Shown: positions 30,183 to 53,582, numbered from the stretch's first letter. The stretch is 64,000 nt of DNA from an uncultured Nitrospiraceae bacterium (GCA_963727805.1 CAVSHF010000005.1:1088001-1152000), one strand, 5' to 3'. Made by a program: numbers and translations. The notes: generated by a model not told the origin, from the sequence alone.

Positions 30183-32339
30183 TTAAAACTTATATGCCAT
30201 GCTCACGAAGCCTATGCTCGCATTGTAGCTCGGGTTTGCATAAGCACCTGTAAGAAAAGTGCTGCTGCTGCCGGTGCCCAGGAGATACTGATAATTAGGG
30301 TTAGAATACGCATAATCGTTGTACTTGAACTGTTCAAAAACAGCCCCGATTGCCATCGTGAATGATTTTGATATCGCATAGCTCAATTTGCCGAGAAAAG
30401 TACTTTTATGGTAGGAGTCCACATCGTTAAGATTTGGGTCGCCGACTGGACCGGTAGCCGTGTTGGAATTCACGCCGTTAATCACTCCGGGGAACGCAAA
30501 GGCGAAATCCTCCGTACCATCAGAATTCACATAATCATACTGCACCCTGAACGTCAGCTTTTTCGGCACCAGATAGAAATCGACCCCTGCCCCGAATTCA
30601 TAAGTATCGTCTTTCAGTTTCCGGTTCCACATGAAGTTGGAACTCGTCGGCGTTGTGCCGATTGAGGCAGCACTGCCATTGAAATCGACCAGGAATTGTT
30701 GGGTATTTTCGAGATCAAAGTAAGCGTTCACTTTTATAACGCTTCCGGCCAGGTAATCGCCATAAATTTCGAACTCATTCGTCTTCGCATTTTGAACGCC
30801 CAGACTATCATCAGGGTAGGTAGCTTTCTTATATTTGTATGCGGCACCGATATTAAGGTTAGAGAGAGGAGAAGCATCCACAGCAATCTTATAGGTGTCC
30901 CGTCTCTGCTTTGCGGCATCGAATGCCACAAATTGTGGAAAATTGAGATGGGTTGGGCTGGAATCCAAATCATATGAAGGACCATATTTAGCCAATCTCA
31001 TCAGCCGCTCATAGCCGATCTTCGGCGTCAGGAAATCAAGACCATTCCATCTCAGTTCGGCCGAATATAAATTGTCTTTCGTTGAAGGGATATCCGGTCT
31101 GTTTTCCCTGTTTGTATCGATATATGCATAAGCTACATTCAGATGAAATTGTTCGGGAAGCTTAAATCCGAAATCAGCTCCGTAATGGTTCTTTTTATAA
31201 TCGAAAAGAGGGATCTGAACGATAGGGGGAGTATTGCCCGGGATCGTTTGGGTTATAATGCTCGAATTGTTCTCCGTGCTGTAATATTTGTAGTACAGCT
31301 TGACGTCGAAGAATCGGAGAGGTCTGGATGTCAGAGAAAAGGCGTAATTCTGGACGTGCTTGCGTCCCGTAAAGTCATTGGAGTTCAAAGTTGTTGTGGG
31401 ATTGCCAGCTATTGAATTGTTGAAGTTAAGAAGGGGAGTGAGATCAAAACTCGACCTCTCGTAAGAATCGTCAAGACTAACGTTGAAACGGCTGTTCAGC
31501 GGCAGCTGCACCACACTTTTGAACCCCAGTTTGTAGTAATGGTTGTCGGGCGGAAGTGACATCAGAGACGCTGTCGAACCGCTTATCGGTCCGGTCCCGT
31601 CGATCAACAGGGTCTGGTTTGCATTTGTGAACTCGCCGTATGAGTACGTTGCTGCGGCAAACACCGGGGTAGACCTGTATCCGATTTCACCCATATAATT
31701 GGTGGTCTCGTAATTAACAGGAGCGGGGATTTCAATTGCGCCTGAGCCGCCGATCCCACCGTTGCTCCACGGGGTAACGCCGCTTCTGTCCTCCCTGGAC
31801 ACAGAGAAATTAACGTAAAAAGGGTTAAGCACATCTACTCTTATCTCGCCGCCGTACTGGCTCCTTTTGATAGTGTAGTCAAATGAGTTCCACGTTGATG
31901 GATTCTTGTTCGAAGGGACCCCAGCAGTGAGAGGGCTCGTAAGGTGGTTGGATCCAACGCCGGAGTAAGGGGTCAGCGCACCGGTAGTGGTATTATGTAT
32001 GATCTCGTTAGTGAAGACGTCGAGCTTGAACTTGCCATACATGCCGCCATCAAGCTGATAGTTTTGAGTATGGTAGCCTGGATCGAGGACTCTGATTTTC
32101 ATCCAATAGTCGTCGCTATCATAACCCAGCCTGATATCTCCGAAAAGACCGCCTTGCGACGTCTTCAAGTCTCTATATTCACTGAATTTGGCTTTGCTGC
32201 CGCTCACATCAGTGGCTGCACCCGTTGCACCCACCTCTCCATAAAATGTCCCGTGTGTCTCAGCGTCGTCAACTGCAAAAGCACTGGCAAATGGCAGGAG
32301 CAAAAAAGAGATGATTATAGTTATTTTTCTTAATTTCAT
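30183..32339 (-). CDS. MtrB/PioB family outer-membrane beta-barrel (decaheme-associated porin)
   Basis: Signal peptide, AKFSEYRD and SLPPDN motifs, C-terminal ..YKF; directly downstream of a decaheme cytochrome. Confidence 0.9.
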   Translation of the reverse strand: MKLRKITIIISFLLLPFASAFAVDDAETHGTFYGEVGATGAATDVSGSKAKFSEYRDLKTSQGGLFGDIRLGYDSDDYWMKIRVLDPGYHTQNYQLDGGMYGKFKLDVFTNEIIHNTTTGALTPYSGVGSNHLTSPLTAGVPSNKNPSTWNSFDYTIKRSQYGGEIRVDVLNPFYVNFSVSREDRSGVTPWSNGGIGGSGAIEIPAPVNYETTNYMGEIGYRSTPVFAAATYSYGEFTNANQTLLIDGTGPISGSTASLMSLPPDNHYYKLGFKSVVQLPLNSRFNVSLDDSYERSSFDLTPLLNFNNSIAGNPTTTLNSNDFTGRKHVQNYAFSLTSRPLRFFDVKLYYKYYSTENNSSIITQTIPGNTPPIVQIPLFDYKKNHYGADFGFKLPEQFHLNVAYAYIDTNRENRPDIPSTKDNLYSAELRWNGLDFLTPKIGYERLMRLAKYGPSYDLDSSPTHLNFPQFVAFDAAKQRRDTYKIAVDASPLSNLNIGAAYKYKKATYPDDSLGVQNAKTNEFEIYGDYLAGSVIKVNAYFDLENTQQFLVDFNGSAASIGTTPTSSNFMWNRKLKDDTYEFGAGVDFYLVPKKLTFRVQYDYVNSDGTEDFAFAFPGVINGVNSNTATGPVGDPNLNDVDSYHKSTFLGKLSYAISKSFTMAIGAVFEQFKYNDYAYSNPNYQYLLGTGSSSTFLTGAYANPSYNASIGFVSMAYKF

Positions 32340-32350
32340 TTCATTGCCTC

Positions 32351-33292
32351 CTATTCCCTAAAAGAACAGCCATTCGCAGTTTTTAATCCGTTGCTGCCGT
32401 GAATGGACGGGTGGCAGTTCAGGCAGGCACGGCCGTATACATGGTTTGAGGGGTTGGTAATACCAGGCGCAGACGTCTGGAAGCGGGTGAAAGGCTTCCC
32501 CCCCATACTCCCTCCGTTTCCGTGGCACTGCTCGCACAGAGACGGCACCCTCTGAGTCAGTAATCTGGGATGATTGCTCCCGTGGGGATTATGGCAGTTA
32601 TCGCAATTCTCTTCTACAGGCGGGTGCTCGTTCATGTATGGCCCTCTTTTTTCCGCGTGACATTTATAGCAAAGGTCGTTGATAGAACCAGCCTTTAACA
32701 TTTTGTCGCTAAGCTCACCATGAGGGTTATGACAGTTAACACATGCAACCTTGCCTTCTTTGATTGGATGGTGGGACTGTTTGTTTACCATGGCTTTTAT
32801 GGCACTGTGGCACTGATAACACACCTCGGATTTTTCCGCTTTCAGGAGCTTATCTCCTCCTCTGTGAGGCGAATGGCAGTTGTCACACGAAACATCCTCG
32901 GTACTATGTCTGCCACTCTTCCAAAACGCCTGATCCTTCATCACTTCATGGCAGGAGAGGCATTTTGCCGTCTTAGCGCCCGGATCTGTTTTTTTATCGA
33001 ACGCAAAGATATCCACTCCTCGTCCGCCGCCTTTTTCAACATGCTTTGCTCCGGGACCATGGCAGGTTTCGCAAGCGTCCTGCGATGCCGGCCCTTTCAC
33101 ATGTTTTTTTGAATGGACGGTCTTTTGATAGGTTTCATACTGGGTTTCGTGACAGCCCTTACATGTCGCAGCGCCGATGTATCCTTTCTTTGCATCGTCT
33201 TCTTTAATTCCCTCATCAGCGCCGAACGACACCGAGACGGAGAATAGAAGCAGGATTAGTGGAAATATAAGCAGAATATACCTTCTCTTCAT
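32351..33292 (-). CDS. DmsE/MtrA family decaheme c-type cytochrome
   Basis: Signal peptide; exactly 10 CxxCH; CETCHGPG, SHHP, CHAEKRGP and CHPSIHGSN motifs. Confidence 0.95.
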   Translation of the reverse strand: MKRRYILLIFPLILLLFSVSVSFGADEGIKEDDAKKGYIGAATCKGCHETQYETYQKTVHSKKHVKGPASQDACETCHGPGAKHVEKGGGRGVDIFAFDKKTDPGAKTAKCLSCHEVMKDQAFWKSGRHSTEDVSCDNCHSPHRGGDKLLKAEKSEVCYQCHSAIKAMVNKQSHHPIKEGKVACVNCHNPHGELSDKMLKAGSINDLCYKCHAEKRGPYMNEHPPVEENCDNCHNPHGSNHPRLLTQRVPSLCEQCHGNGGSMGGKPFTRFQTSAPGITNPSNHVYGRACLNCHPSIHGSNGLKTANGCSFRE

Positions 33293-41479: not shown

Positions 41480-42433
41480 ATGGATGAAGAAATAAAGATT
41501 CTCTGTATTGATAAGGATCCTAAAATCCTGAAAAGTCTGACGCAACTTTTTCGTGAAGATCCATTTGCCATACTCACCGCTTCTACGGCGGCCGAGGGAA
41601 TTGAACTACTAAGCATAAATACAGTTTCTGTCATTCTTTCGGACAACATGCTACCCGGCATGACAGGTATCGAATTAATGGAGTTGGCAAAGTCCCTTTC
41701 CCCTGACAGCATAAGGATACTTATGACTGGTCTCGCGGATCCCGATGTGGCCATAGACGCAATTAATAAGGGGGAGATTTTCAAGTTTATTATGAAACCG
41801 TGGGATAACGATGAACTCAGGAGAATCGTATGTGATTCGATAGCTAAATACAAGATTGTGATAGCTATCAGAAATGCTGACGACACTAGTATCCTCTCCC
41901 TAGCTCAGACAATTGAACTGAAGGATCCATACACGAAAGGACATTGCGAAAGGGTTGCCGTGTTCGCGCTGATGATAGCGGATGCACTGAACTTGAATGG
42001 GGAGAAGAAAAAGCATATTAAATATGGCAGCTGGCTTCATGACTGCGGCAAGATAGGCGTTCCCGAATTAATTTTGAATAAACCGGGACCTCTCGATGAC
42101 GAACAGTTCGAGACAGTTAAACGACATGCACGCTGGGGCGGCGATGTGGTAAAAACCTCACGAATCCCCAATACGGTTGTTAATATTGCGGTCTATCATC
42201 ATGAGAGGTTTGACGGCACGGGGTATCCGTTGGGGCTCAGTGGTGTTCATATACCTGTTGAGGCTAGGATAGTGGCTATAGCGGATGCGTACGATGCCAT
42301 GACATCTGACAGACCATACAGAAAAAGGCTTTCCCATGTAGCTGCAATTGATGCTCTCCGAAAAGGGAAGAACGGAACTTTCGACCCGACCTTGGTCGAT
42401 ATATTTGTCAATATCATCGATACGGCAGGGTAA
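41480..42433 (+). CDS. Response regulator with HD-GYP cyclic-dinucleotide phosphodiesterase domain
   Basis: REC domain (SDNMLPGMTG, KPW); KDPYTKGHCERV, LHDCGKIG, HHERFDGTGYP and DAYDAMTSDRPYR motifs. Confidence 0.93.
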   Translation: MDEEIKILCIDKDPKILKSLTQLFREDPFAILTASTAAEGIELLSINTVSVILSDNMLPGMTGIELMELAKSLSPDSIRILMTGLADPDVAIDAINKGEIFKFIMKPWDNDELRRIVCDSIAKYKIVIAIRNADDTSILSLAQTIELKDPYTKGHCERVAVFALMIADALNLNGEKKKHIKYGSWLHDCGKIGVPELILNKPGPLDDEQFETVKRHARWGGDVVKTSRIPNTVVNIAVYHHERFDGTGYPLGLSGVHIPVEARIVAIADAYDAMTSDRPYRKRLSHVAAIDALRKGKNGTFDPTLVDIFVNIIDTAG

Positions 42434-42936
42434 CATCAAGCCGAACTGCCAATGTCCTTAAATAAACAGGACGACAATAAACGCATGCAAGACGTTACCA
42501 ACAGAAGAATCCCTTATTAGAATGCTAATATATCTCAAACGACGACTGAAGGAATGTCATATGGCTGTCAAACAGAACAGTATCTATGCTTTGTCTGCAG
42601 CAGGCATCCTTATCGGCATCTTTTTTTCAGCCATGGTATTCTGAGCTGGATCATACTGATAACACCAGAAAATATCGTCCAAGTCTGATGCGGTACCACA
42701 AGGCAAGAATGCAGTTAGTTGGATTGACAGGCTCAGACCTGGAAGTGTCCTATTCTGCAGGAATTCACCCCATAAACTGGGTTTCCCACATCCATCTTTT
42801 CTGGATTTCAGCACATTAATTGAGTTGCTTATCTTAATTCCATAGCAAATGTATATCGACACTTTGTTTATTCGTGGCATCCCCCAGTTTTCATGACATG
42901 CTTCGGTGGGAAGGATGTCCTGTTTGATGCTCCACC

Positions 42937-44538
42937 CTACCTGCGGGTCTTGAGGCTGAAGTCGGGATATGCAGTGACTGCGACTTCGTTCTGGTCAAGA
43001 CCTTCGAATTCTACTTCAGGAGATACACGCAACGGGATAATCATATTCAACAGCTTGAAAAAACTATACATTAAAGCAAAGACAAAAACGATATTTACGA
43101 CTACGCCGATCACCTCTGCAGCAAACTGAGATGCCCCCCCGTAGAACAATCCTTTGACCGTACCGGTAACGCTGTTGAGGCCATCGCCGTATGTCCCGTC
43201 CGCAAAAAGTCCGAGACCTAGAAGACCCCATGCCCCGCAAGTGCCGTGAACGGATATGGCCCCCACAGGATCATCGACTTTCAACTTCCTCTCAACGAAG
43301 AAGATACTTGCACAGCAGAGAACTCCTCCAATCAGTCCGATTATTACAGCTCCTACAGTGCTTACGAATGCACACGCCGCTGTTATAGAAACGAGTCCGG
43401 CCAGCAGTCCGTTGGCGCACACGGAAAGGTCAGGCTTGCCGTAAAGTATCCACATATAGCACATCGCAGAGAAGCATGCTGCGCTGGAAGCAAGCATTGT
43501 ATTTACCGCTATTACACCGACCCTCAGGTCCCCACCGGCAAGGGCAGAGCCTGAATTGAACCCGAACCAGCCGAAGAAAAGAATGAGGCAGCCCACGATG
43601 GCCATTGGGATATGATGTCCGGGCATCGCATTGGGTGTTCCATCGGTCCTGTATTTTCCCATACGGGGACCGAGGACTATCGCTCCTGCAAGCGCCGAAA
43701 CTCCACCGACCATATGAACGACGGATGATCCGGCGAAATCAAGGACCCCGTGACCGAGACCGAAGTTCTTACCGAGCATTGACAGCCAACCGCCGCCCCA
43801 TACCCAGTTTGCGTAAATCGGATATGTGAACATTGAAATGAAGAAGGCGTATATGACAAACGATTTGAATGTCCAGCGTTCGGCCATTGCCCCGGTCGGA
43901 ATAGTTGCCGCAATATCCATTAATACCGCTTGAAACAAAAAGAGCGTAATGATCGAGACATCATATGCCTGCCCTGAAAGAAAAAATCCGGTCGTGCCGA
44001 AAAGTCCGAAGTCCCTGCCGAAAAGGTGCAATGCAACTTCACCATTCAGCAATCCCGTGCCACCCGCAAGAGGCCCGGTGCCGACTCCCCCCATCTGGAG
44101 CGCATAGCCGCAAATCCAGTAACCTAGCACTCCAAAGACGAAGACCATCATGTTCATTGCCATGGTGTGTCCCGTATTCTTTGCCCTCGTAAAGCCGGTC
44201 TCAACCATTGCAAAGCCTGCTTGCATAAAAAAAACGAGAAACCCGCAGATCAGGGTCCAGATAAAATTGATAGCTATCCTGTTGTGGCCTATCACATCGG
44301 CCAGCTTCGTGGCAAGCGGCTCGTTCGTGGCCAGTTTCTTCATATCATCTGCGGTGGGTGCCCCTCGCGAGGCTCCTACCACATCCGCTGCTCCGCCGGT
44401 ATTTGCCCCGGACGGATCAGGTTTCAGTACCGGTGCGGAGGCCGTCCGCACCTGTTCATCGGCAAACGTCTGGAATGCAGGCAGCAGGAGTCCTGCAAAT
44501 AACACAGTCAACAACAAAATAATCCATGCCCTGTTCAT
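42937..44538 (-). CDS. amtB: Ammonium transporter (Amt) with long N-terminal extension
   Basis: FMQAGFA, GAMAER, DFAGSSVVH, WFGFNSGS and DDPVGAISVHG motifs. Confidence 0.95.
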   Translation of the reverse strand: MNRAWIILLLTVLFAGLLLPAFQTFADEQVRTASAPVLKPDPSGANTGGAADVVGASRGAPTADDMKKLATNEPLATKLADVIGHNRIAINFIWTLICGFLVFFMQAGFAMVETGFTRAKNTGHTMAMNMMVFVFGVLGYWICGYALQMGGVGTGPLAGGTGLLNGEVALHLFGRDFGLFGTTGFFLSGQAYDVSIITLFLFQAVLMDIAATIPTGAMAERWTFKSFVIYAFFISMFTYPIYANWVWGGGWLSMLGKNFGLGHGVLDFAGSSVVHMVGGVSALAGAIVLGPRMGKYRTDGTPNAMPGHHIPMAIVGCLILFFGWFGFNSGSALAGGDLRVGVIAVNTMLASSAACFSAMCYMWILYGKPDLSVCANGLLAGLVSITAACAFVSTVGAVIIGLIGGVLCCASIFFVERKLKVDDPVGAISVHGTCGAWGLLGLGLFADGTYGDGLNSVTGTVKGLFYGGASQFAAEVIGVVVNIVFVFALMYSFFKLLNMIIPLRVSPEVEFEGLDQNEVAVTAYPDFSLKTRR

Positions 44539-44556
44539 TTCAATCTCCCTTATCTA

Positions 44557-44886
44557 CTATATCTTAATCTTGTCGCCGAATTGGATTATCATCCCGCCGC
44601 AGATAATGACCGACAAGCCAATCCAGGTCGAACCCGGTATATTCTCATCGAACACGAAACGTCCGAACAATATACTGATCAGCGCGAATACCGCCACATA
44701 GACGCCGAGAAGCCTAGAAAAATCCCATTTAACCGTGTTGACTACTACTCCGTATAATCCCAGCATTGCGGCACCCATAAGAATAACCAATACCCCGCTG
44801 CCGCGTAGACCTTTACGGACTACAGCATCCCCGCCTACTTCCAGGATTGCTGCGGCAATGAAAACAAGCCATGCAAAATATGTCAT
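44557..44886 (-). CDS. SMR/YnfA-like small 4-TM membrane protein
   Basis: About 109 aa, 4 hydrophobic helices, membrane-embedded Glu in AAILEVGGD, F.R..GVY motif. Confidence 0.7.
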   Translation of the reverse strand: MTYFAWLVFIAAAILEVGGDAVVRKGLRGSGVLVILMGAAMLGLYGVVVNTVKWDFSRLLGVYVAVFALISILFGRFVFDENIPGSTWIGLSVIICGGMIIQFGDKIKI

Positions 44887-44916
44887 AACATTAATCCTCC
44901 GATACAATAATTTGAG

Positions 44917-46713
44917 TCAATGCGAAGGTCCGCGGTGAATGATAAGCCACAGCACAATAAGAAAGATTGCAAGAGCTATCGACACGCCCAGCACGACCCA
45001 GCGGATCTTCTTCCAGCTCTGCTTCCACGGGGTCGGTGCCTGAAGCCGGTGGCATCGTCCGGTTAGTTGCACGGCACCCGGATTGTCCAGATCCGACTTC
45101 ATCGCTGCGGCTGACTGATACCGGTCCCCCGGATTGCGTTCCATAGCGTGCAGGATGATCTCCTCGACGTGAGTAGAAACTTTCGGATTGCGTTTCCGCG
45201 GGGCTTCAGGGTCGCCAGTCACACGTGCATTCATGATCACAAACGGATTGTCACCCTCGAACGGCGGCACGCCAACGACCATTTCGTAAAGCATGGCGCC
45301 CAAGCTGTAGATATCGGTCCGCACGTCGCCGCGCTTTCCGCTTACTTGTTCCGGTGCCATGTAATCGGGTGTACCAACCGCAGGAGTGAAGCCAGTGAAT
45401 GTGATCCGTCTGCCCTTCTCCGCCTTGGCGATGCCGAAATCCATTATACGAATCGTGCCATCATAGCAGATCATGATATTCTGCGGTTTAAGATCGCGAT
45501 GGATGATGCCGTTCTCATGCATATATGACAACGCTTCGCAGATACTGCTCGACAGCTTGACTGCGTCTCTTTCGGGTATCGGGCGGACGCTGTTCAACAG
45601 GTGCGAAAGAGTATAGCCACGGAGATATTCGGTCACAATGTAGGGCCGGCTGCGGTGTCCTTCCTCCAAGTGAATGAATTTCAGGATGTACGGATGGTTC
45701 AGGCGAAGTCCGATCTCCTCCTCACGCTGGAACCGCGAGTAGAATCCGGGATCGCTCTCGAACTCCATGAACGGCACCTTTACGGCCACTGTCTCTTTGT
45801 TCGTCAGATCAGTGGCCTTGAATATTGTTGCCATTCCGCTACGACTGATGGTTTCGGTGATTAGAAAGCGGTTATCGAGCGTCTGTCCGGGGCGAAGTTC
45901 ATACTTGGCAGTAGGGTCGGCAGTCTCCTGGTACATCGGCACCCCGCGATAATACGCTACCTTCTCAACATCATTGATCTGTAGGACCTGCACAGATAGA
46001 TTGTCTTCGGTTCCTCTCTGCTCGGACAGCGCTATAAGCTGGCGACAAGCTTGTGCCGGAGAGAGGCGCGATACGATATCGGCGATCTCGCTGTCTGCAA
46101 CGTGGGAATACAGGCCGTCCGAACAAAGAACTACGCGGTCGCCGTTAAAAATCGTAACGCTCTCCACATCAACCCGTGCTACCGGCTCCGGCCCGACGCT
46201 GCGCGTCAGTATAGAGCGGTTCTCACTTGTCTTGGCATCCTGTTCCGAAATCAACCCGAACTTTTGCTGCATTCCGGTATAGGTATGGTCTGTTGACAAT
46301 TGCTTGATCTCGGTCTTGCGAATTAGATATACTCGGGAATCTCCGACATTGCCGACCACAAGTTCATTGTTGCGAAGTACGGCAATGGCCAAAGTTGTAG
46401 CCATGCGGGACTTGCCGTGGTCCTCCATGCCTTTGTCGTATACCGCAAGATTTGCCGCGTTGAACATCTGAGTGAGTAACTGCTGCGGGGTCGGCTCGCC
46501 TGGGATCTCGCGAAAGGTCTTGAGCGCCGTTTCCACAGCCAGCCGGCTCGCCACTTCTCCATGATTCATTCCGCCCACACCATCGGCAAGCACGGCCACT
46601 GCACCAAGCCTACGCTTCTCTTCCAGTGATTGCGGTTGCCAGAAGCCCACGTAATCTTCATTGTTTTCGCGCGCAGGTCCGGGTGATGACAGTTCAGAGT
46701 AGGTTAGTTCCAT
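44917..46713 (-). CDS. Bifunctional PP2C-type phosphatase / Hanks-type Ser/Thr kinase with C-terminal TM anchor
   Basis: PP2C motifs RENNED, ADGVGG, GDSR, CSDGL and DN; kinase motifs VAVK, HRDLKPQN, DFG, GTPDYMAPE and DIYSLG; C-terminal TM. Confidence 0.93.
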   Translation of the reverse strand: MELTYSELSSPGPARENNEDYVGFWQPQSLEEKRRLGAVAVLADGVGGMNHGEVASRLAVETALKTFREIPGEPTPQQLLTQMFNAANLAVYDKGMEDHGKSRMATTLAIAVLRNNELVVGNVGDSRVYLIRKTEIKQLSTDHTYTGMQQKFGLISEQDAKTSENRSILTRSVGPEPVARVDVESVTIFNGDRVVLCSDGLYSHVADSEIADIVSRLSPAQACRQLIALSEQRGTEDNLSVQVLQINDVEKVAYYRGVPMYQETADPTAKYELRPGQTLDNRFLITETISRSGMATIFKATDLTNKETVAVKVPFMEFESDPGFYSRFQREEEIGLRLNHPYILKFIHLEEGHRSRPYIVTEYLRGYTLSHLLNSVRPIPERDAVKLSSSICEALSYMHENGIIHRDLKPQNIMICYDGTIRIMDFGIAKAEKGRRITFTGFTPAVGTPDYMAPEQVSGKRGDVRTDIYSLGAMLYEMVVGVPPFEGDNPFVIMNARVTGDPEAPRKRNPKVSTHVEEIILHAMERNPGDRYQSAAAMKSDLDNPGAVQLTGRCHRLQAPTPWKQSWKKIRWVVLGVSIALAIFLIVLWLIIHRGPSH

Positions 46714-46762
46714 AGTTCGAACACTTTAGCATTTATTTTACGAAATTGAAAGAATACGTTGC

Positions 46763-46796
46763 AAAAAGGATGGCCACCCCTTAAGGTGACCATCCT
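46763..46796 (-). terminator. Rho-independent terminator between the APC permease and kinase/phosphatase genes
   Basis: Minus strand AGGATGGTCACC-TTAAGG-GGTGGCCATCCT followed by TTTT. Confidence 0.75.
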
Positions 46797-46826
46797 GATT
46801 CGAAACTGATACACTGCTCAGCCTCT

Positions 46827-48725
46827 TTAGGATTTCGCAGGACTGCTGAGGAGGATTCCCTTGCCCTTGGCCTTACTGCTCTTCATGAAGTAAATAGCAC
46901 CGTAAATGCCCCACAGTGCGACGACGCCGAGCGCTATATACGGTTCCTTCCAGCTCATGCCGGCTACTGCAAATGGCCCTACAAGGTAGAAGATCATGAT
47001 CACAAGGTTGGCCAAAAGACCGAGGATCGGTATAACCAGATGCTTGATCCCATTAAAGGTATGATGCTCTTTGAAAGCCACCATCGCGATCCAGCAAGTG
47101 ATCATGTAGAGAAGGAAGGTACCGAAGTTGCTTACCAGCGTGACTATGAGTAGAGTATTGGGTAGTGCCACGTACATATCGGGCGAGAATATGCCGATGC
47201 TGTACCAGAAGTTATGTTTGTCCAGTGCCGCAGGTGCCGTCGCCTGCCCTCCCATATAAATCGTCACTGTTATGATTCCGATGATCACAGAGATCACGGC
47301 CAGAGCCCAGATTGCACGATAGGGAGACGATGTTTTGCCGTGAAGGAGACCGAAATGCGAGGGTACTTCCTCGTCACGGCCCATCGCATAGGTAACGCGG
47401 GCGCCGGTGCTGAGGCAGGAGAGTGTCGTGCCGATCAGCGCCAGAAAGACTGTGAAAGCCTGTACAAGCATGAACGCCTTGCCTGCCGCGTAACTGCCGA
47501 ACAACCATGTGCCGACGATGACCATCATGTCTCCTATCGGTGCGCCGGAGGCGCCTGCCATAGGTATGGTGTAGCCGTTGTGTAGCAGGTAGTTGGCGCC
47601 GAAATACTCGATCAGGTAGCAAAACGCCCCCTGGATCGCCAGGGAGAGCAGGACCGCCTTCGGAATGTCCCTCTTCGGATGCTTCGCCTCTTCACCCATC
47701 GCGGTGACCGACTCGAACCCGACCAGGATCAGGATCGCTATTGCCGCCTGTATGAAGATGTAATTGAAGCCATGCGGAGATACGACGGACCCCGCGGTCG
47801 AATGATAGTTGAACGTTTCAACCCCCTTGTCATCCTTAGTGACCGCGCCGTCAGTATAGTCTACCGTGAACGGGGCGGCGAGTTTCGGGTCTGTTGCTGG
47901 CTTGCCGTCCTTGTCCGCAGGTATCGGCATACTTGTCTTTTCATCCATCATATCAGCCATCTGATATACCGGCTTCCCGTCCTTGTCCATCGTCGGTTTG
48001 CCGTCGGGATCGAGCGCAGGTGTTGGATTGCCCTTGTCATCCTTCACCACATCTTGTGCAACCTGATAGTTAACTGCAATACCGTTGGAAAGATGGTAAC
48101 CGACAGTCCCCTGAGGGTGCTGAACGCGATAGCCAATGGCGATTACCGTGAAAATCAGAAGCGCCGAAATCTGGATGATATTGATAGCCACATTGACAGC
48201 CGTTGTGCCGGTTACACCACGGTATGCGATGTAAGCAACGCCCAGTGCAAAGACTATGCAGAAAAGCCACATAAAAATCGGGCTGTTATAAGTGCCGCTG
48301 AAGGTATCCGGCCAGAATTGACTGCACAGGAATCCACCGAGGATCGCTGTGACGCCAACCATGACTCCAGGATATACCCAATAATAGAGGTGGCTCGCCC
48401 ATCCTGTGATGAACTTGGCGATGCGTGCGAATTTGTAGGAGTGGGTTTTTGAAAGGTACGCTTGCTCCGCATACAGATACGACGATCCCGGGCCTGGATA
48501 CAATTTTGCCAGTTCCGAATAGCTGATTGCAGTGGCGAAGCACAGCAACAGGGCAAAGAGAATGCCAAACCACATCGACATCCCGGCCATCGGTGCGCCG
48601 TAAAGCGACTGCATTTGAAAAGTTAACCATAGGAACGCTCCTGGGGCGATTAGCGCCATCGCGTTCATCGTAAGACCCGTCAGGCCCAATGTCCCTCTGG
48701 TGACTGGTTGTTGTTCGTTTGCCAT
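46827..48725 (-). CDS. APC superfamily amino acid/amine permease with a large repeat-containing loop
   Basis: About 12 TMs; P.PGSSY.Y, ILVGFES, GEEAKHPKRDIP and ARVTYAMGRD motifs; ~110 aa hydrophilic insertion. Confidence 0.92.
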   Translation of the reverse strand: MANEQQPVTRGTLGLTGLTMNAMALIAPGAFLWLTFQMQSLYGAPMAGMSMWFGILFALLLCFATAISYSELAKLYPGPGSSYLYAEQAYLSKTHSYKFARIAKFITGWASHLYYWVYPGVMVGVTAILGGFLCSQFWPDTFSGTYNSPIFMWLFCIVFALGVAYIAYRGVTGTTAVNVAINIIQISALLIFTVIAIGYRVQHPQGTVGYHLSNGIAVNYQVAQDVVKDDKGNPTPALDPDGKPTMDKDGKPVYQMADMMDEKTSMPIPADKDGKPATDPKLAAPFTVDYTDGAVTKDDKGVETFNYHSTAGSVVSPHGFNYIFIQAAIAILILVGFESVTAMGEEAKHPKRDIPKAVLLSLAIQGAFCYLIEYFGANYLLHNGYTIPMAGASGAPIGDMMVIVGTWLFGSYAAGKAFMLVQAFTVFLALIGTTLSCLSTGARVTYAMGRDEEVPSHFGLLHGKTSSPYRAIWALAVISVIIGIITVTIYMGGQATAPAALDKHNFWYSIGIFSPDMYVALPNTLLIVTLVSNFGTFLLYMITCWIAMVAFKEHHTFNGIKHLVIPILGLLANLVIMIFYLVGPFAVAGMSWKEPYIALGVVALWGIYGAIYFMKSSKAKGKGILLSSPAKS

Positions 48726-48749
48726 AATGTTACTCCTTTTCCTTTTTCT

Positions 48750-49691
48750 TTAAAAGGACATTGTAAGATTCATACCATACACAAATGTCTCGTCAAGCTT
48801 GCCGTTGGGGTTGTATGAAACACCGTTGACGGTCTTTTTAGCATTGCTCGAAAGCGGGAACCAATATTGGGCAATCGGCTGCAGTACAACGTTCTTGCCA
48901 AGAGGTACACTCAGCCCAGCCTTTACATTGCCATCGTGAAGAGCGCTATATTTAGATCCTGTGTATGCGTTGGTCGAACTCTGAAAGGTATCCCAATAGT
49001 TACTGCTCCCGACGAAATAGCCGAACCCCGCGCCAAGGTCAACCGTCATGTCGCCCGTAGGCAGTTTAAAGACAGGTATAGACTGGCTGAAGGACAGATT
49101 GAAGTAAGTGCCGGGATAGCCATCAACGTCGCGGTTAACCGCCAGTAAAGGATGGGATATTATGTCATACGTAGCGCTGACGAAGAGCTCCTGGGTTTGC
49201 TTCGCATACGCCACTCCGTAATATATATATCCTCCGGTAAGAGCCAGCTTATCGATATTATAGGTATAGCTGAGAGTGAGGTCGGTTTCATTCCAGCTCT
49301 TCTGGCCAACACCTACACCCTTGCCGTTAGCATCGGTAGTTTTCCCGGGAATAAACGACTGGGTCTGGTGCTGGTCGGTGTCGAGGTTGCCCCAAACGTT
49401 AACGGAAAAGCCTTTATAATTTAGAGTTATTGTCGGTTCTATGACAACGCTCTTTGTGCTGATCTCATATCCTCTGAATATATATCTATTTAGAACTGCA
49501 ACCCCTGCGCTTCCCGTAACCTTCGCCTCTTCAACCTTCGGCGCTTCGGCCGCAGCTGCCGGTGCCGCAACTGCTGGGGCAGTGGCTTCCGGTGTCGTGG
49601 CGGGTGCTGCCGGAGCCTGCTCCTCACCGTACACATTGACGATAAGACATAATGCAAAAATTGCTATCAATAACACGATAAAGCGCTTCAT
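48750..49691 (-). CDS. TorF/TIGR02001-like outer-membrane porin
   Basis: Signal peptide, Ala/Pro linker, N.YIFRG and ETDLTLSY motifs, terminal Phe; start at ATG 49691. Confidence 0.75.
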   Translation of the reverse strand: MKRFIVLLIAIFALCLIVNVYGEEQAPAAPATTPEATAPAVAAPAAAAEAPKVEEAKVTGSAGVAVLNRYIFRGYEISTKSVVIEPTITLNYKGFSVNVWGNLDTDQHQTQSFIPGKTTDANGKGVGVGQKSWNETDLTLSYTYNIDKLALTGGYIYYGVAYAKQTQELFVSATYDIISHPLLAVNRDVDGYPGTYFNLSFSQSIPVFKLPTGDMTVDLGAGFGYFVGSSNYWDTFQSSTNAYTGSKYSALHDGNVKAGLSVPLGKNVVLQPIAQYWFPLSSNAKKTVNGVSYNPNGKLDETFVYGMNLTMSF

Positions 49692-49762
49692 CTCTATAAT
49701 CCCCCCTTGCAATTATTTGTCGGACCATGTCCGCTTCTATTCTTCTATTCAGTGAAACCCCT

Positions 49763-49954
49763 CTACCATCCTTTGCCTGCACCCTCCTTTTCGAATATTT
49801 TTCTTATCCCCAGTTTCTTTATCTTGTAACCTATCATCCTTTCGGTTATGCCTAGTCTTCTAGCGGCCCTAGCCATAACCCAGTTGCTTTCACTAAGGGC
49901 ATTGACGATCTCCTCACGTTCTATCTCGTTTATCTTGTCTTTCAACGTAATCAT
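49763..49954 (-). CDS. Stand-alone Fis/NifA-type helix-turn-helix protein
   Basis: IEREEIVNALSESNWVMARAARRLGITERMIGYKIKK resembles the C-terminal HTH of NifA-like activators; SD AGGAGG. Confidence 0.8.
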   Translation of the reverse strand: MITLKDKINEIEREEIVNALSESNWVMARAARRLGITERMIGYKIKKLGIRKIFEKEGAGKGW

Positions 49955-49986
49955 TGCTTGCCTCCTGGCCTGGATATTTACGAACT

Positions 49987-50003
49987 AGCGAAAAATATGC
50001 CAG
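49987..50003 (-). promoter_or_regulatory. sigma54 (-24/-12) promoter
   Basis: Minus strand CTGGCATATTTTTCGCT with exact GG-N10-GC spacing, about 30 nt upstream of the HTH gene. Confidence 0.75.
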
Positions 50004-50049
50004 CCTCTATCCCGTTGATATTGAAGCGCTCTTTCAAAACACTAATCGT

Positions 50050-50096
50050 ACAAAGTTGTCGTAAATGCACAATATTGTAATATTTCATAGTATTGT
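50050..50096. promoter_or_regulatory. Putative enhancer (UAS) array for a sigma54 activator
   Basis: ACAAAGTTGT (50050-59), ACAATATTGT (50069-78) and degenerate ATAGTATTGT (50087-96); TGT-N9-ACA between the first two. Confidence 0.55.
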
Positions 50097-50461
50097 CTTT
50101 TTCAATTCCATCCATTTTCAAGCTGCTTAATATTTTTCCCTCGTATGCGATGCAACAGCTGCTGCATACAACCCTCGTGTTCGACACGATGATCAAAACG
50201 GGTCCGCTTTCTGGGAAGCTGAGGGAGGAACCCTAAAAAGAAGCAAAGGCTTTTAATGGTTATTCTCAGCAAACATGCAAGTATTTAGTCGATCTTATCT
50301 CCACGTACTCTTAGGAATGGGCGCTCCCATGCTGGAACAAATAATATTTATTGATTTTGATAGATCGAGCAGTATTCGACCTACGAGGCCTAGATAGGGA
50401 GGCATAATAAAACTATCTGTTGTTGGTGAAGAACTGCATGTTTCTCCGGGCCGTCTTTATT

Positions 50462-50489
50462 TTGACCGCAATGGTTTTCTGTCTATAAT
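50462..50489 (+). promoter_or_regulatory. sigma70-type promoter upstream of ccp
   Basis: TTGACC-N16-TATAAT. Confidence 0.55.
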
Positions 50490-50615
50490 TTACATAAGTC
50501 TAAGAGGAGGTTGTCGGTCACAGAGAATATCGATTGACGCGACGAAGTTTAGTTAAGAGGAGCGACGCATTCGTAGTATTCTATTTTGCCAGAAATAATT
50601 CAAAGAGGTAGAGAA

Positions 50616-51665
50616 ATGATCTTCGGAAAAATAAAAGTTGCGTTAAGGCTTATTCTGATAATAACTGCGCTGTCTTTGGTTACGGGTTTGTCATACGGTG
50701 AAGACATAGATGGTGCATTATTAAAGCAGGCGCAGAAACTTTTTAGTCCATTGCCGAAGGTGATGGAATCAGACCAAAATCCTGTGACGCCCGAAAAAGT
50801 AAAGCTCGGGAAGATGCTCTTTTATGAATCAAGAATTTCGATAGATGGCACTGTGAGTTGTGCTAAGTGTCATCCGATCAGTCTTTACGGCGCCGACGGT
50901 TTGAGAACAGCGGTGGGTAATCACTGTAAAGCCAATCCCCGAAATGCTCCCACTGTATTCAATGCAGCATCTCAGATTTCGCAACACTGGATCGGCAACA
51001 GAATGAGCGTCGAAGACCAAGCCAAACAGTCAGTGATCGGGCCGCCGGCCTTCGGGATGGTGAAGTATGAGGACGTTGAGAAAAGGCTCAAGGAATACGA
51101 GGAGTATGTCGTTTTATTCAAGGAGGCCTTCCCTGCAGATAAAGACCCGGTGACGGTAGATAATTTTGCTAAGGCCATAGGCGCATTCGAACGCACTCTT
51201 TTGACACCTTCACCCTTCGACTCATATCTGAAGGGCAATGAGAAAGCCCTGACGGGCGGTCAGAAGAAAGGGCTCAAGACTTTTATCGAGACCGGCTGTA
51301 CGGGCTGCCATTCGGGCACATATGTCGGCGGACAGATGTACCAGAAGTTCGGCTTAGTTGAGGCTTATTGGAAATATACGAAGAGTGAGAAGGTAGATGA
51401 GGGGCGTTATGCCGTCACAAAGAGTGAGGCTGATAAATATGTGTTTAAGGTCCCGGTTCTCAGAAACGTGGAGAAAACGCTTCCATATTTTCACGACGGC
51501 TCAGTCGACACACTGGAAGCGGCAGTGACGATTATGGCCAAGGTCCAACTCGGAAGGGATATCTCTAGCAAGCAGGCGGCCGAGATGGCCGATTTCCTGA
51601 AATCCTTGACCGGGAAAATATCCGAGGATGCGATTACCGTACCACTATTGCCGTCACTAGAATAA
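50616..51665 (+). CDS. ccp: Di-heme cytochrome c peroxidase
   Basis: CAKCH, RNAPTVFN, CTGCH, FKVPVLRNV and PYFHDG motifs; start at ATG 50616. Confidence 0.93.
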   Translation: MIFGKIKVALRLILIITALSLVTGLSYGEDIDGALLKQAQKLFSPLPKVMESDQNPVTPEKVKLGKMLFYESRISIDGTVSCAKCHPISLYGADGLRTAVGNHCKANPRNAPTVFNAASQISQHWIGNRMSVEDQAKQSVIGPPAFGMVKYEDVEKRLKEYEEYVVLFKEAFPADKDPVTVDNFAKAIGAFERTLLTPSPFDSYLKGNEKALTGGQKKGLKTFIETGCTGCHSGTYVGGQMYQKFGLVEAYWKYTKSEKVDEGRYAVTKSEADKYVFKVPVLRNVEKTLPYFHDGSVDTLEAAVTIMAKVQLGRDISSKQAAEMADFLKSLTGKISEDAITVPLLPSLE

Positions 51666-51708
51666 ATGTTCAGATGTGAATAATAAATATGCAAGGAGGA
51701 AGTAAGAG

Positions 51709-52056
51709 ATGAAAAATATTTTGGTGGTAATTGTTGCGACGATATCCTTTTGCGCGTTGATTGCAGGAGGTTCTATTGCGGCAGAGAAAGCCGAAAAAGA
51801 CGAATCAAATAAGATATCGGGAGAGACGCAATTCAAGGATCATTGCGCTGTCTGCCATCCGGACGGTGGCAATGTCATCAATCCTGCAAAGACATTACAT
51901 AAGAAGGATCTTGACGCCAACGGGATTAAGAGGCCTGCGGATATTATCGCAAAGATGAGAAATCCGGGGCCCGGCATGACGCAGTTCGACAAAAAGACGA
52001 TCCCCGACAAGGAAGCCCAGACGATAGCCGAATATATTCTGAAGACTTATAAGTAG
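51709..52056 (+). CDS. Monoheme class I cytochrome c (c6-like)
   Basis: Signal peptide, CAVCHPDGGN, distal Met in PGPGM. Confidence 0.92.
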   Translation: MKNILVVIVATISFCALIAGGSIAAEKAEKDESNKISGETQFKDHCAVCHPDGGNVINPAKTLHKKDLDANGIKRPADIIAKMRNPGPGMTQFDKKTIPDKEAQTIAEYILKTYK

Positions 52057-52355
52057 AATCTTGCAGGTAAAACCAAGAGGTGCAGTGTTTACAAACGTGC
52101 CCCAGTTAGTTTTAGGGTTGGTATGCCGAGGGAGCGAGGGACTATAGGTGTCATGCTGATGGAACATGAGTCATAGCCGAATTACAGCTGGAGGATGGCC
52201 GAAAGAATGGAGAATTATAAGGCCGACAACGTAAATATTTCCAGACAGAAAGGCAACCCGGACACTGTTCATCGGCAATACAATCTCTTTGCGGGACTTT
52301 TATCCAATTCCTGCTGTGATACAATACAAATATCAACTCACTAAGGGAGGGAGTT

Positions 52356-52670
52356 ATGTTGCCTGATCAGTACACCAGCATCAAGAAGCGATTCAAGAAC
52401 TTTTATAAGGCATCGGAGAATCTCGGCAAGGCTGCCAAAGCGTCCGGCCCTATCGATGATAAGACCTCGCATCTCATCCAGCTTGCCGCTGCCGCTGCCA
52501 TACGTTCTGAAGGGTCGGTCCATTCTCACACCAGAAGAGCGTTGGAACTCGGTGCAAAGCCTGACGAAATTTACCATGCGATCATTCTGCTCACAAGCAC
52601 CATCGGGTTCCCAACGACCTCTGCCGCATTGAGCTGGGCAGACGATATTATACAAGGGGAAAAGAAGTAA
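52356..52670 (+). CDS. Carboxymuconolactone decarboxylase / AhpD-like protein
   Basis: HLIQLAAAAAIRSEGSVHSH..RAL..GA and TIGFP motifs; no CxxC. Confidence 0.88.
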   Translation: MLPDQYTSIKKRFKNFYKASENLGKAAKASGPIDDKTSHLIQLAAAAAIRSEGSVHSHTRRALELGAKPDEIYHAIILLTSTIGFPTTSAALSWADDIIQGEKK

Positions 52671-52673
52671 TAG

Positions 52674-53582
52674 TTGTATATTCAGTTTTTCCCAACTTTC
52701 AGGTGCACGGATTCGTGTAACTTCTGCTTTAACAGGGGATTGTCCACAGGGCTCGATATCGAAGTTGCCGCCTTCAGAAGGCTCGCGGATATCCTCGCCA
52801 GTGAAGGGATCGAAAGGATTGATATCCTTGGCGGCGAGCCAACACTTCATTCTGACCTAATCCCCATCATCGACGCTGCCTGCACGAAAGGACTTGCCGT
52901 TTCAATGAGCAGCAATGGCTCCAATGTTCAGATGCTCAAGACCCTGTCGCAAAATTATGATCAAAGCCGCCTGAAAATCGGAGTATCCCTAAATGGCAAA
53001 CCGATTGATGATTCGCTTTTATTCTATATCAGCGAATCCAGGCCCCTTTTGAAAAGCGTCTGCACTCATCGCCGTTTTTTACCGGATAACACTGCAAGGT
53101 TTCTCGATAAGCCCGATATACGCTACTATGCTATTTTCATGGACACGCTTCGCAACGCAGACCTGGCAAGGAGTCTTTCCTTTGCTCAATTCCATGGGAC
53201 TCTAAATTCCCTTCGCCGCAGACATAAAAACCTTGAAGGAGTATACTGTTCGGGCTTCCTGCCAGATATCAGGAATTATCCGAGACTTGAAAGCGTGCGC
53301 TGTCCTGCCGGCACAACTAAACTCTCCATCATGCCCGACGGGTCGGTCTATCCCTGCTATCTCCTTTTCCAACGCCCGGAATTTAGACTCGGCAATATTT
53401 TAAGTGATCGCTTTAAAGACATCGAAAACAATCGCCTACTGAATTTTTTCAAGACATTTAAGACAAATAGGTGTCCCAATGTCGATTGCGATCTGTTCAG
53501 CCGTTGTCACGGCGGATGCCCTGCAGTGAGTCTGGCAGTCCATGGCGACCTGAATGCACCTGACCCAAGGTGTGTAAGTTAG
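52674..53582 (+). CDS. Radical SAM / SPASM domain protein
   Basis: CTDSCNFC and GGEP motifs; SPASM cysteines CPAG..DGSVYPC..C...C.....C.GGC..DPRC. Confidence 0.9.
   Translation: MYIQFFPTFRCTDSCNFCFNRGLSTGLDIEVAAFRRLADILASEGIERIDILGGEPTLHSDLIPIIDAACTKGLAVSMSSNGSNVQMLKTLSQNYDQSRLKIGVSLNGKPIDDSLLFYISESRPLLKSVCTHRRFLPDNTARFLDKPDIRYYAIFMDTLRNADLARSLSFAQFHGTLNSLRRRHKNLEGVYCSGFLPDIRNYPRLESVRCPAGTTKLSIMPDGSVYPCYLLFQRPEFRLGNILSDRFKDIENNRLLNFFKTFKTNRCPNVDCDLFSRCHGGCPAVSLAVHGDLNAPDPRCVS

Follow-up and report, generated by a model that had tools for sequence, protein, structure and literature searches.

An order-wide nitrogen-regulon header joined to a cross-phylum APC permease and PP2C/Ser-Thr kinase module in an uncultured Nitrospiraceae bacterium

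Ammonium uptake in bacteria is under PII control, and phospho-control of Amt transporters is known from fungi and plants; the nitrogen transporters of the yeast Npr1-Mep2/Gap1 and plant CIPK23-AMT1 systems are regulated in this way. A candidate bacterial counterpart was analyzed in a 64,000-nucleotide stretch of DNA from an uncultured Nitrospiraceae bacterium (GCA_963727805.1, CAVSHF010000005.1:1088001-1152000), the whole of which is called the window below. A cluster of six co-oriented genes (42937..50096, all on the minus strand) encodes a lone helix-turn-helix (HTH) protein, an outer-membrane porin, an APC-fold permease, a fusion of PP2C phosphatase and Ser/Thr kinase with a transmembrane (TM) helix, a YnfA-like protein and an Amt. 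The locus is an order-wide nitrogen-regulon header joined to a cross-phylum module of APC permease and PP2C/kinase, often with Amt. The membrane-anchored, sensor-less PP2C/Ser-Thr kinase may switch its neighbors (Amt, APC permease or both) by reversible phosphorylation, in parallel to PII; the probability of this reading was put at about 0.5.

In the GlnK-AmtB system, as here, an Amt belongs to a sigma54 nitrogen regulon, the pore of the window protein being intact at seven of eight positions, and the host genome has an amtB-glnK operon under the same header; here no glnK stands by amt, and glnK often abuts the permease in homologous loci. The Npr1 and CIPK23 systems pair a Ser/Thr kinase and an opposing phosphatase with Amt-family and APC-family transporters, as is predicted here, but the bacterial module is gene-linked, membrane-tethered and often fused, and the eukaryotic phosphosite position is not enriched in it. 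The closest solved relatives of the window Amt were 6eu6 and 8qj3/8qpf, which we take to be the sensors Ks-Amt5 and Sd-Amt1, where an Amt is tied to a signaling enzyme; the window protein ends about 9 residues past the Pfam domain with no fused signaling domain, and its partner is a separate Hanks kinase/PP2C. Ks-Amt5 is an Amt-histidine kinase according to the available part of PMC5764959. The E. coli putrescine:H+ symporters PuuP and PlaP share the APC fold and the TM1 proline with the permease and were the best-scoring characterized relatives tested, but identity is about 25%, the loci and genome hold no puu-type catabolic genes, and the window permease carries a large periplasmic insert. 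The Stk1/PknB-Stp1 pair has extracellular PASTA domains, which are absent here (NF033483, 303 vs 450 bits; the protein stops six residues past the TM helix). In the nasA-ppkB pair of proteobacterial nitrate clusters, where ppkB stands for a 'bifunctional protein-serine/threonine kinase/phosphatase', as here, a PP2C-kinase(-TM) gene stands directly behind that of a nitrogen-substrate transporter; the proteins are only 23-33% identical, and the partner there is NarK or FNT, here an APC permease and an Amt clade. That pair was noted with a pointer to eukaryotic nitrate-transporter phosphorylation, and the available part of the source gives no experimental function for ppkB (PMC3596284). No description of the permease-kinase-Amt module was found in the literature searched; subscription papers and supplements beyond it may hold one. 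The available text of a Geomonas transcriptome study (PMC10746287) mentions neither permease nor kinase; its supplements and file 1 of PMC2995071 may hold expression data.

At least 588 permease relatives were confirmed by profile scanning of GTDB, and the 80 best loci, which were retained, came from Nitrospirota, Desulfobacteraceae, Verrucomicrobiota, Myxococcota, Acidobacteriota, Planctomycetota, Pseudomonadota, Baltobacteraceae and Binataceae. PP2C lay no more than 5 kb from the permease in 63 loci, kinase in 59, amt in 40, glnK in 22, a YnfA-like gene in 11 and a glnA-like gene in 9, counts which are not independent since the genomes are partly kin. In the subset of 51 loci flanked by 3 kb or more on each side, PP2C was found in 45, kinase in 43, amt in 29, glnK in 15, YnfA-like in 6 and glnA-like in 7, and this linkage on the permease side argues for a transporter phospho-switch. 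Fused PP2C-kinase open reading frames (ORFs) numbered 35, Myxococcota and many Acidobacteriota having separate, often rearranged genes; the linkage of permease and kinase was kept through fusion/fission and inversion. In Acidobacteriaceae (L121, L122, L124, L127-L129) a divergent glnA-like gene, which scored under all NCBIfam cut-offs in the four loci scanned, usually lay directly after the split PP2C and kinase. Anaeromyxobacter oryzae Red232 (L072) is a cultured carrier of the module.

Retention was also reciprocal, which points the same way. Among 301 Nitrospirota genomes a close permease was found in 22, a close kinase fusion in 19 and both in 18, so that the permease ortholog accompanies the kinase ortholog in 18/19 genomes; the four with permease only are three contig ends and one 75%-complete genome. 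In an even sampling the module was rare: among 301 Verrucomicrobiota the permease was found in 2 and the fused kinase in 3, the genes being adjacent in both shared genomes. A search of 40 relatives gave a close permease in 3 (G003, G004 and G013) and a distant form followed by glnK in G028. The complete cluster lies behind nifEN-X-nifI in G003; the same place is occupied in G004, where the contig ends inside the kinase, and glnA is inserted between permease and kinase in G013. An earlier reading, made from the sequence only, had proposed the six genes as a system, and a neighborhood check showed that its core of permease, PP2C and kinase, often with amt, does recur across phyla; the SMR-like gene that it counted as a member is optional (6/51 well-flanked loci).

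The window Amt (PF00909, 367 bits; TIGR00836, 378 vs 343) scored 182 vs 657 bits with the AmtB equivalog and is outside the AmtB clade. In a tree of 66 Amts, every one taken from permease neighborhoods, it fell in a 28-member clade (support 1.0) with a kinase or PP2C gene within 1.2 kb in 25/28; glnK lay within 400 nt in 6/12 Nitrospirota-type and 0/16 Myxococcota-type members. Ser/Thr was present at position 117 in 28/28 of the clade vs 24% outside it, at position 301 in 25/28 vs 13%, and at tail positions in 24/28 vs 8/37. By analogy to AmtB topology these positions are presumably in cytoplasmic loops and the tail. The proximity of kinase or PP2C and the enriched Ser/Thr add to the argument for a transporter switch.

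The kinase protein consists of PP2C (about residues 1-250), a Hanks Ser/Thr kinase (about 276-545) and one C-terminal TM helix (573-592). The kinase motifs VAxK, alphaC Glu, HRD, DFG and APE are all present, with a degenerate glycine-rich loop, and the catalytic motifs are invariant or nearly so across 36 orthologs, in which the PP2C metal-binding residues D20, D44, D199 and D237 are invariant; both catalytic centers look intact. A C-terminal hydrophobic helix with nearly nothing outside the membrane was found in 72/74 related kinases and, there being no ectodomain, the input and substrate of the kinase must lie in the cytoplasm or within the membrane. Distant PP2C-kinase fusions, 23-33% identical, were located in or near nitrate-assimilation genes, as the sequence-only reading had stated. 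In three of five plasmid regions read, the fusion was directly behind a transporter; the transporters in question were a nitrate-type MFS protein, an FNT protein and the APC of an N-methylglutamate-type cluster. Six distant Nitrospirota fusions were in nitrate clusters, three of them directly behind an MFS gene. Ectodomain-free, TM-tailed kinases and distant fusions behind nitrogen transporters are what a transporter switch would predict. A methylamine-type counterpart of the module is found on a Burkholderia plasmid (L130:2177-8614), where genes for an APC permease and a PP2C-kinase come after glnA-like, amidotransferase and FMN glutamate-synthase-family genes. The Nitrospirota kinase genes of L045, L037 and L049 were frameshifted or stop-interrupted, by decay or assembly error.

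Several observations weigh against this reading. The module is patchy (4/40 close relatives), and some kinase orthologs stand away from the permease (G042 and G335, with extra copies in G319 and G560). Permease and kinase trees (36 pairs) shared 7/33 splits, with rho 0.41 overall; this partial congruence indicates that partners were shuffled, and tight co-evolution is not claimed from the trees. No permease-kinase fusion was found among long candidates, nor any longer fused permease form in a set of 7998, which is weak evidence. The Ser/Thr sites of the Amt clade are inherited in one permease-sampled clade and are leads rather than independent evidence. The site equivalent to Thr460 of plant AMT1 was rejected as a target, Ser/Thr being no more frequent there (11/28 vs 15/37). 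The best NCBIfam matches of the permease were amino-acid carriers, all far under cut-off, and phosphorylation, its targets and expression are predicted. A complex prediction for the permease with the kinase-TM half (score 0.13, mark 0.32) counts neither way.

The layout of the cluster, read 5' to 3' on the minus strand, was as follows.

50087-50096, minus strand: weaker third box, two mismatches, at -94
50050-50059 and 50069-50078, minus strand: ACAA-N2-TTGT boxes, predicted upstream activator sites, at -57 and -76
49987-50002, minus strand: sigma54 -24/-12 promoter, GG-N10-GC, by sequence pattern
49763-49954, minus strand: lone Fis/NifA-type HTH, 63 residues (PF02954, 47 bits)
48750-49712, minus strand: TorF-like outer-membrane porin, sub-cutoff TorF/Gcw_chp matches, likely start ATG 49691
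46827-48725, minus strand: APC-fold permease of a family without a name (PF13520, 79 bits)
46762-46797, minus strand: intrinsic-terminator-like hairpin 3' of the permease, 13 bp and U run, from folding of the intergenic gap
46723-46751, minus strand: predicted sigma70 extended -10 promoter, 9 nt 5' of the kinase ATG, by sequence pattern
44917-46713, minus strand: PP2C-kinase-TM fusion (Pfam PP2C and Pkinase)
44557-44886, minus strand: UPF0060/YnfA-like SMR-type protein, four helices (PF02694, 33 bits)
42937-44538, minus strand: Amt of the kinase-linked clade (TIGR00836, 378 vs cut-off 343)

The gene families, the span, the GG-N10-GC site with its upstream palindromes (50050-50096) and the lack of glnK and of a catabolic enzyme within the six genes had all been recorded in the sequence-only reading and were found as described, the porin at sub-cutoff scores. 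The YnfA-like protein passed PF02694 (33 vs cut-off 24.9) and not the YnfA equivalog (39.7 vs 114); its membrane Glu16 is conserved. An Rfam scan of 42000-51000 at gathering thresholds gave 0 matches, hence no guanidine or other known riboswitch. The host is a nitrogen-fixing bacterium; its genome, which is 100% complete and lies in five contigs, contains nifHDK-EN-X, rpoN, a gene for a NifA-like activator, five genes for PII proteins and two more amt genes, one 5' of glnK and one 5' of glnB-glnA. Elsewhere in the window, an MtrB/PioB porin gene adjoins a multihaem cytochrome gene (30183-33292), an extracellular electron-transfer conduit, and genes for a di-haem cytochrome c peroxidase, a small cytochrome c, a CMD-family protein and radical-SAM/SPASM proteins lie on the opposite strand at 50586-53582.

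The six genes are probably not a single sigma54 operon, as had been supposed, because a terminator-like hairpin and a separate, conserved kinase promoter lie inside the cluster. The 113-nt gap between permease and kinase folds to a 13-bp hairpin and U run (z = -3.3), which a simple terminator scanner missed; a strict terminator test was passed by 11/16 Nitrospirota/Desulfobacterota gaps and 18/51 gaps overall. An extended -10 element was located 5-10 nt 5' of the kinase ATG in 14/18 loci, 13 of which have a -35 box at 17-18 nt, against a background of 109/144,889 ATGs for this arrangement. It stays with the kinase where other DNA parts the gene from the permease (L040, L041 and L172). A Shine-Dalgarno sequence before the kinase ATG was found in 0/18 loci, and the kinase mRNA is likely leaderless or near-leaderless. 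The ynfA-like gene has a sigma54 site before it in 8/18 relatives, and in G013 this site comes with both boxes (at -57 and -75); none was found in the 30-nt gap of the window. Given the kinase promoter and these sigma54 sites before ynfA-amt, the ancestral layout appears to be two inducible transporter units either side of a housekeeping-level regulator. A strict sigma54 pattern was found before 18/90 permease loci, an undercount since promoters of the type present in the window escape it.

The HTH and porin are a generic head of the amt operons of the order and not module-specific parts, as they had been taken to be. A survey of 41 genomes gave 30 loci, from which 4 full-length or truncated NifA-like genes were dropped; of the remaining 26 lone-HTH loci, 23 have a sigma54 site, 22 have one or more boxes and 20 have two or more, the boxes being concentrated at -56 to -58 and -73 to -77. 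Most of them continue as porin-amt, and it is this recurrence of site, boxes and porin-amt that identifies HTH-porin as the standard nitrogen-operon head. In the host genome, 5/967 sigma54-like sites had two or more ACAA-N2-TTGT boxes, a count which is marginal by itself, with permuted motifs giving 0-2 and random positions 0-3; 4 of these 5 precede amt operons, so the evidence is the location of the boxes rather than their number. The shared promoter architecture of the genome's other amt operons and the nif neighbors in G003, G004 and G013 support membership in a sigma54-type nitrogen regulon, in agreement with the sequence-only reading. The lone HTH matches the NifA C-terminus best in NCBIfam, is 50% identical to the C-terminal HTH of the genome's NifA-like protein, and is found within about 3 kb of a NifA-like gene in four genomes; its homologues form clusters rich in Nitrospirota. 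From this similarity and gene linkage, the boxes are probably bound by the genome's NifA-type activator. No such box was found within one mismatch upstream of the genome's nifH. The HTH protein has neither the GAF nor the AAA+ domain of NifA activators, a full-length NifA-like gene being elsewhere in the genome, and may act as a decoy giving negative feedback on the boxes. GnfM/NtrC was rejected as the activator, the box shape being unlike the TGC-N11-GCA sites of Geobacter GnfM (available part of PMC2995071).

The porin was below cut-off with PF09694 (22.8 vs 24 bits) and TIGR02001 (17.8 vs 47 bits); a paralog (85%) stands before amtB-glnK in the host genome and BBP2 porins take its position in other loci, and its role is assigned from the weak TorF/Gcw_chp matches and this replacement. 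A third porin and lone HTH occur in a K+-uptake cluster (PII, kimA-like, porin, HTH, kdpABC; G000:C3:2112445-2124957), which ties the same header parts to K+ transport. An operon of amt, glutamine amidotransferase, glnB and glnA (G000:C3:1883334-1887853) has two sigma54 sites in tandem, both of them with activator boxes.

The permease (PF13520, 79 vs 27 bits) was modeled with a predicted local distance difference test (pLDDT) value of 78, and the fold matched AdiC and GkApcT (E about 1e-11). In TM1, A27-P28-G29 aligns to G-T-G of the solved amino-acid carrier 6f34, Pro28 being invariant in the family, and the G-[S/T]-G carboxylate-binding loop of CAT/APA/LAT amino-acid carriers is absent. A proline has no backbone NH of the kind used in carboxylate binding, which argues for an amine or ammonium as substrate. 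The proline is common to PuuP, PlaP and the Burkholderia permease, whose family-profile scores (74, 82 and 70 bits) compare with 57.5 for the best solved amino-acid carrier; one of the two runs behind these scores was made without filters. The genome holds a single GlnA-family gene, no PuuA/GmaS paralog, nothing that passes the cut-off for urea carboxylase, and a ureohydrolase match that is no more than marginal. Use of guanidine, putrescine or methylamine along known pathways was set aside, the enzymes not being found with the queries used, outside which transaminase/dehydrogenase routes fall. No recurring catabolic neighbor was seen with 46/117 unassigned adjacent ORFs scanned. Nitrogen-assimilation genes accompany the permease in 57 of the 80 loci and K+-uptake genes (kdp, kimA) in 13. 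In view of the proline loop, the amine-use enzymes tested and found absent, and the ammonium and K+ uptake neighbors, ammonium was judged the likeliest substrate, a little short of even odds, a small amine came clearly behind it, and an amino acid came last. The organic amine or amino acid plus ammonium proposed earlier is thus kept for ammonium and a small amine and disfavored for an amino acid. A periplasmic beta-hairpin insert (residues about 205-310; window 47800-48110) has repeated D-K-D-G-K-P-like turns and is absent from distant homologs. The family is large, with at least 8000 members passing E<=1e-20 in the set of candidates scored, and most carriers belong to lineages of soil and peat type; among the matches listed, those 84-91% identical come from Nitrospirota, Thermodesulfovibrionales, which places the host there. 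One homolog (P0216) is from the glaucophyte alga Cyanophora paradoxa, and other long homologs look eukaryotic.

PII is not replaced, given that five PII genes are in the genome, all on another contig than the cluster, and that glnK is directly beside the permease in 13 homologous loci; phospho-control would work beside PII rather than instead of it. Two patterns are substitution-like between glnK and kinase. Four distant Nitrospirota permeases have no kinase ortholog and glnK directly behind them, and the Myxococcota-type clade Amts have no nearby glnK (0/16).

Under the preferred reading of a transporter phospho-switch, nitrogen limitation would bring the NifA-type activator onto the ACAA-N2-TTGT boxes and so switch on the sigma54 promoter; these elements are present. 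The resulting transcript would carry HTH, porin and permease and end mostly at the hairpin, and the lone HTH would probably compete for the boxes as negative feedback. The kinase-phosphatase would have a leaderless sigma70 promoter of its own, from which low-level synthesis is predicted, and would hence be present before induction. The ynfA-like and amt genes of this strain would depend on the kinase promoter or read-through, because the sigma54 promoter of relatives is absent here. The porin would admit the solute, and Amt and probably the permease would import ammonium or a small carboxylate-free amine. The TM tail would hold both enzymes at the membrane to act on cytoplasmic loops and tails (candidate Amt residues Thr117, Thr301 and Thr522), and PII proteins encoded elsewhere would act in parallel. 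The fullest version is advanced only tentatively, as rather improbable in its entirety: a widespread, eukaryote-like bacterial phospho-switch in which a constitutive, tethered kinase/phosphatase from a leaderless promoter gates the Amt clade and a hitherto unrecognized APC-fold ammonium transporter that is alternatively GlnK-controlled, with decoy feedback by a mini-NifA.

The main rival, held to be unlikely, turns the relation around: Amt and/or the permease would be ammonium receptors (transceptors) steering the sensor-less kinase/phosphatase toward PII, glutamine synthetase and Kdp regulators, a split Ser/Thr version of the Amt-histidine-kinase sensors. The nearest solved Amts are the presumed sensors named above, the kinase has no input domain, and gate residues vary within the Amt clade. 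The amt gene, here without its own sigma54 promoter, lies downstream of a housekeeping-type promoter in a genome that already has two canonical amtB genes, and KdpD/E and glnA recur near the module. However, 7/8 positions of the S1 site, Phe gate and twin-His pair are kept, the equivalents of W148, D160, H168, W212, F215, S219 and H318 being intact and only the F107 position changed (Leu206). That change was rejected as proof of a non-transporting Amt, since F107A leaves E. coli AmtB unimpaired (available part of PMC10433425). The sigma54 sites before ynfA-amt in 8/18 relatives, with both boxes in G013, also fit an induced scavenger.

It is quite unlikely that the target of the kinase/phosphatase is PII or some other soluble regulator of nitrogen metabolism, the proximity of its gene to transporters being regulon clustering only. 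The cyanobacterial PII phosphatase does act on PII, glnK is within 5 kb of the permease in 15/51 loci and glnA-like in 7/51, and the kinase has its own promoter and a partly incongruent tree; but permease linkage (45/51) is far above that of glnK, the membrane anchor is kept in 72/74 kinases, and distant homologs stand behind three unrelated transporter folds. The sequence-only reading, in which a single sigma54 operon serves the uptake of ammonium and of an organic amine or amino acid and phosphorylation takes the place of PII, draws on the APC fold, the likeness to putrescine importers and to the APC of the Burkholderia N-methylglutamate-type cluster that also holds a PP2C-kinase, and the fact that glutamine/glutamate import needs no special catabolic gene, but is the least likely of all in view of the internal terminator and second promoter, the five PII genes, glnK beside many permease homologs and near 6/12 Nitrospirota-type Amts, and the lack of a PuuA/GmaS paralog, urea carboxylase or recurring catabolic neighbor.

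This window adds the division of the cluster between separate promoters, the header made up of a lone HTH and its box, and the case for ammonium as substrate of the permease. With a gene-linked kinase/phosphatase whose catalytic sites look intact and whose candidate targets can be named, bacterial phospho-control of nitrogen uptake becomes directly testable, and the module could account for the long-noted ppkB gene of nitrate clusters. If the permease carries ammonium, it would be a second kind of ammonium importer, filed by annotation pipelines as an amino-acid permease. Through this arrangement, found in many bacterial phyla, nitrogen uptake is likely tuned by reversible phosphorylation, as it is in plants and yeast.

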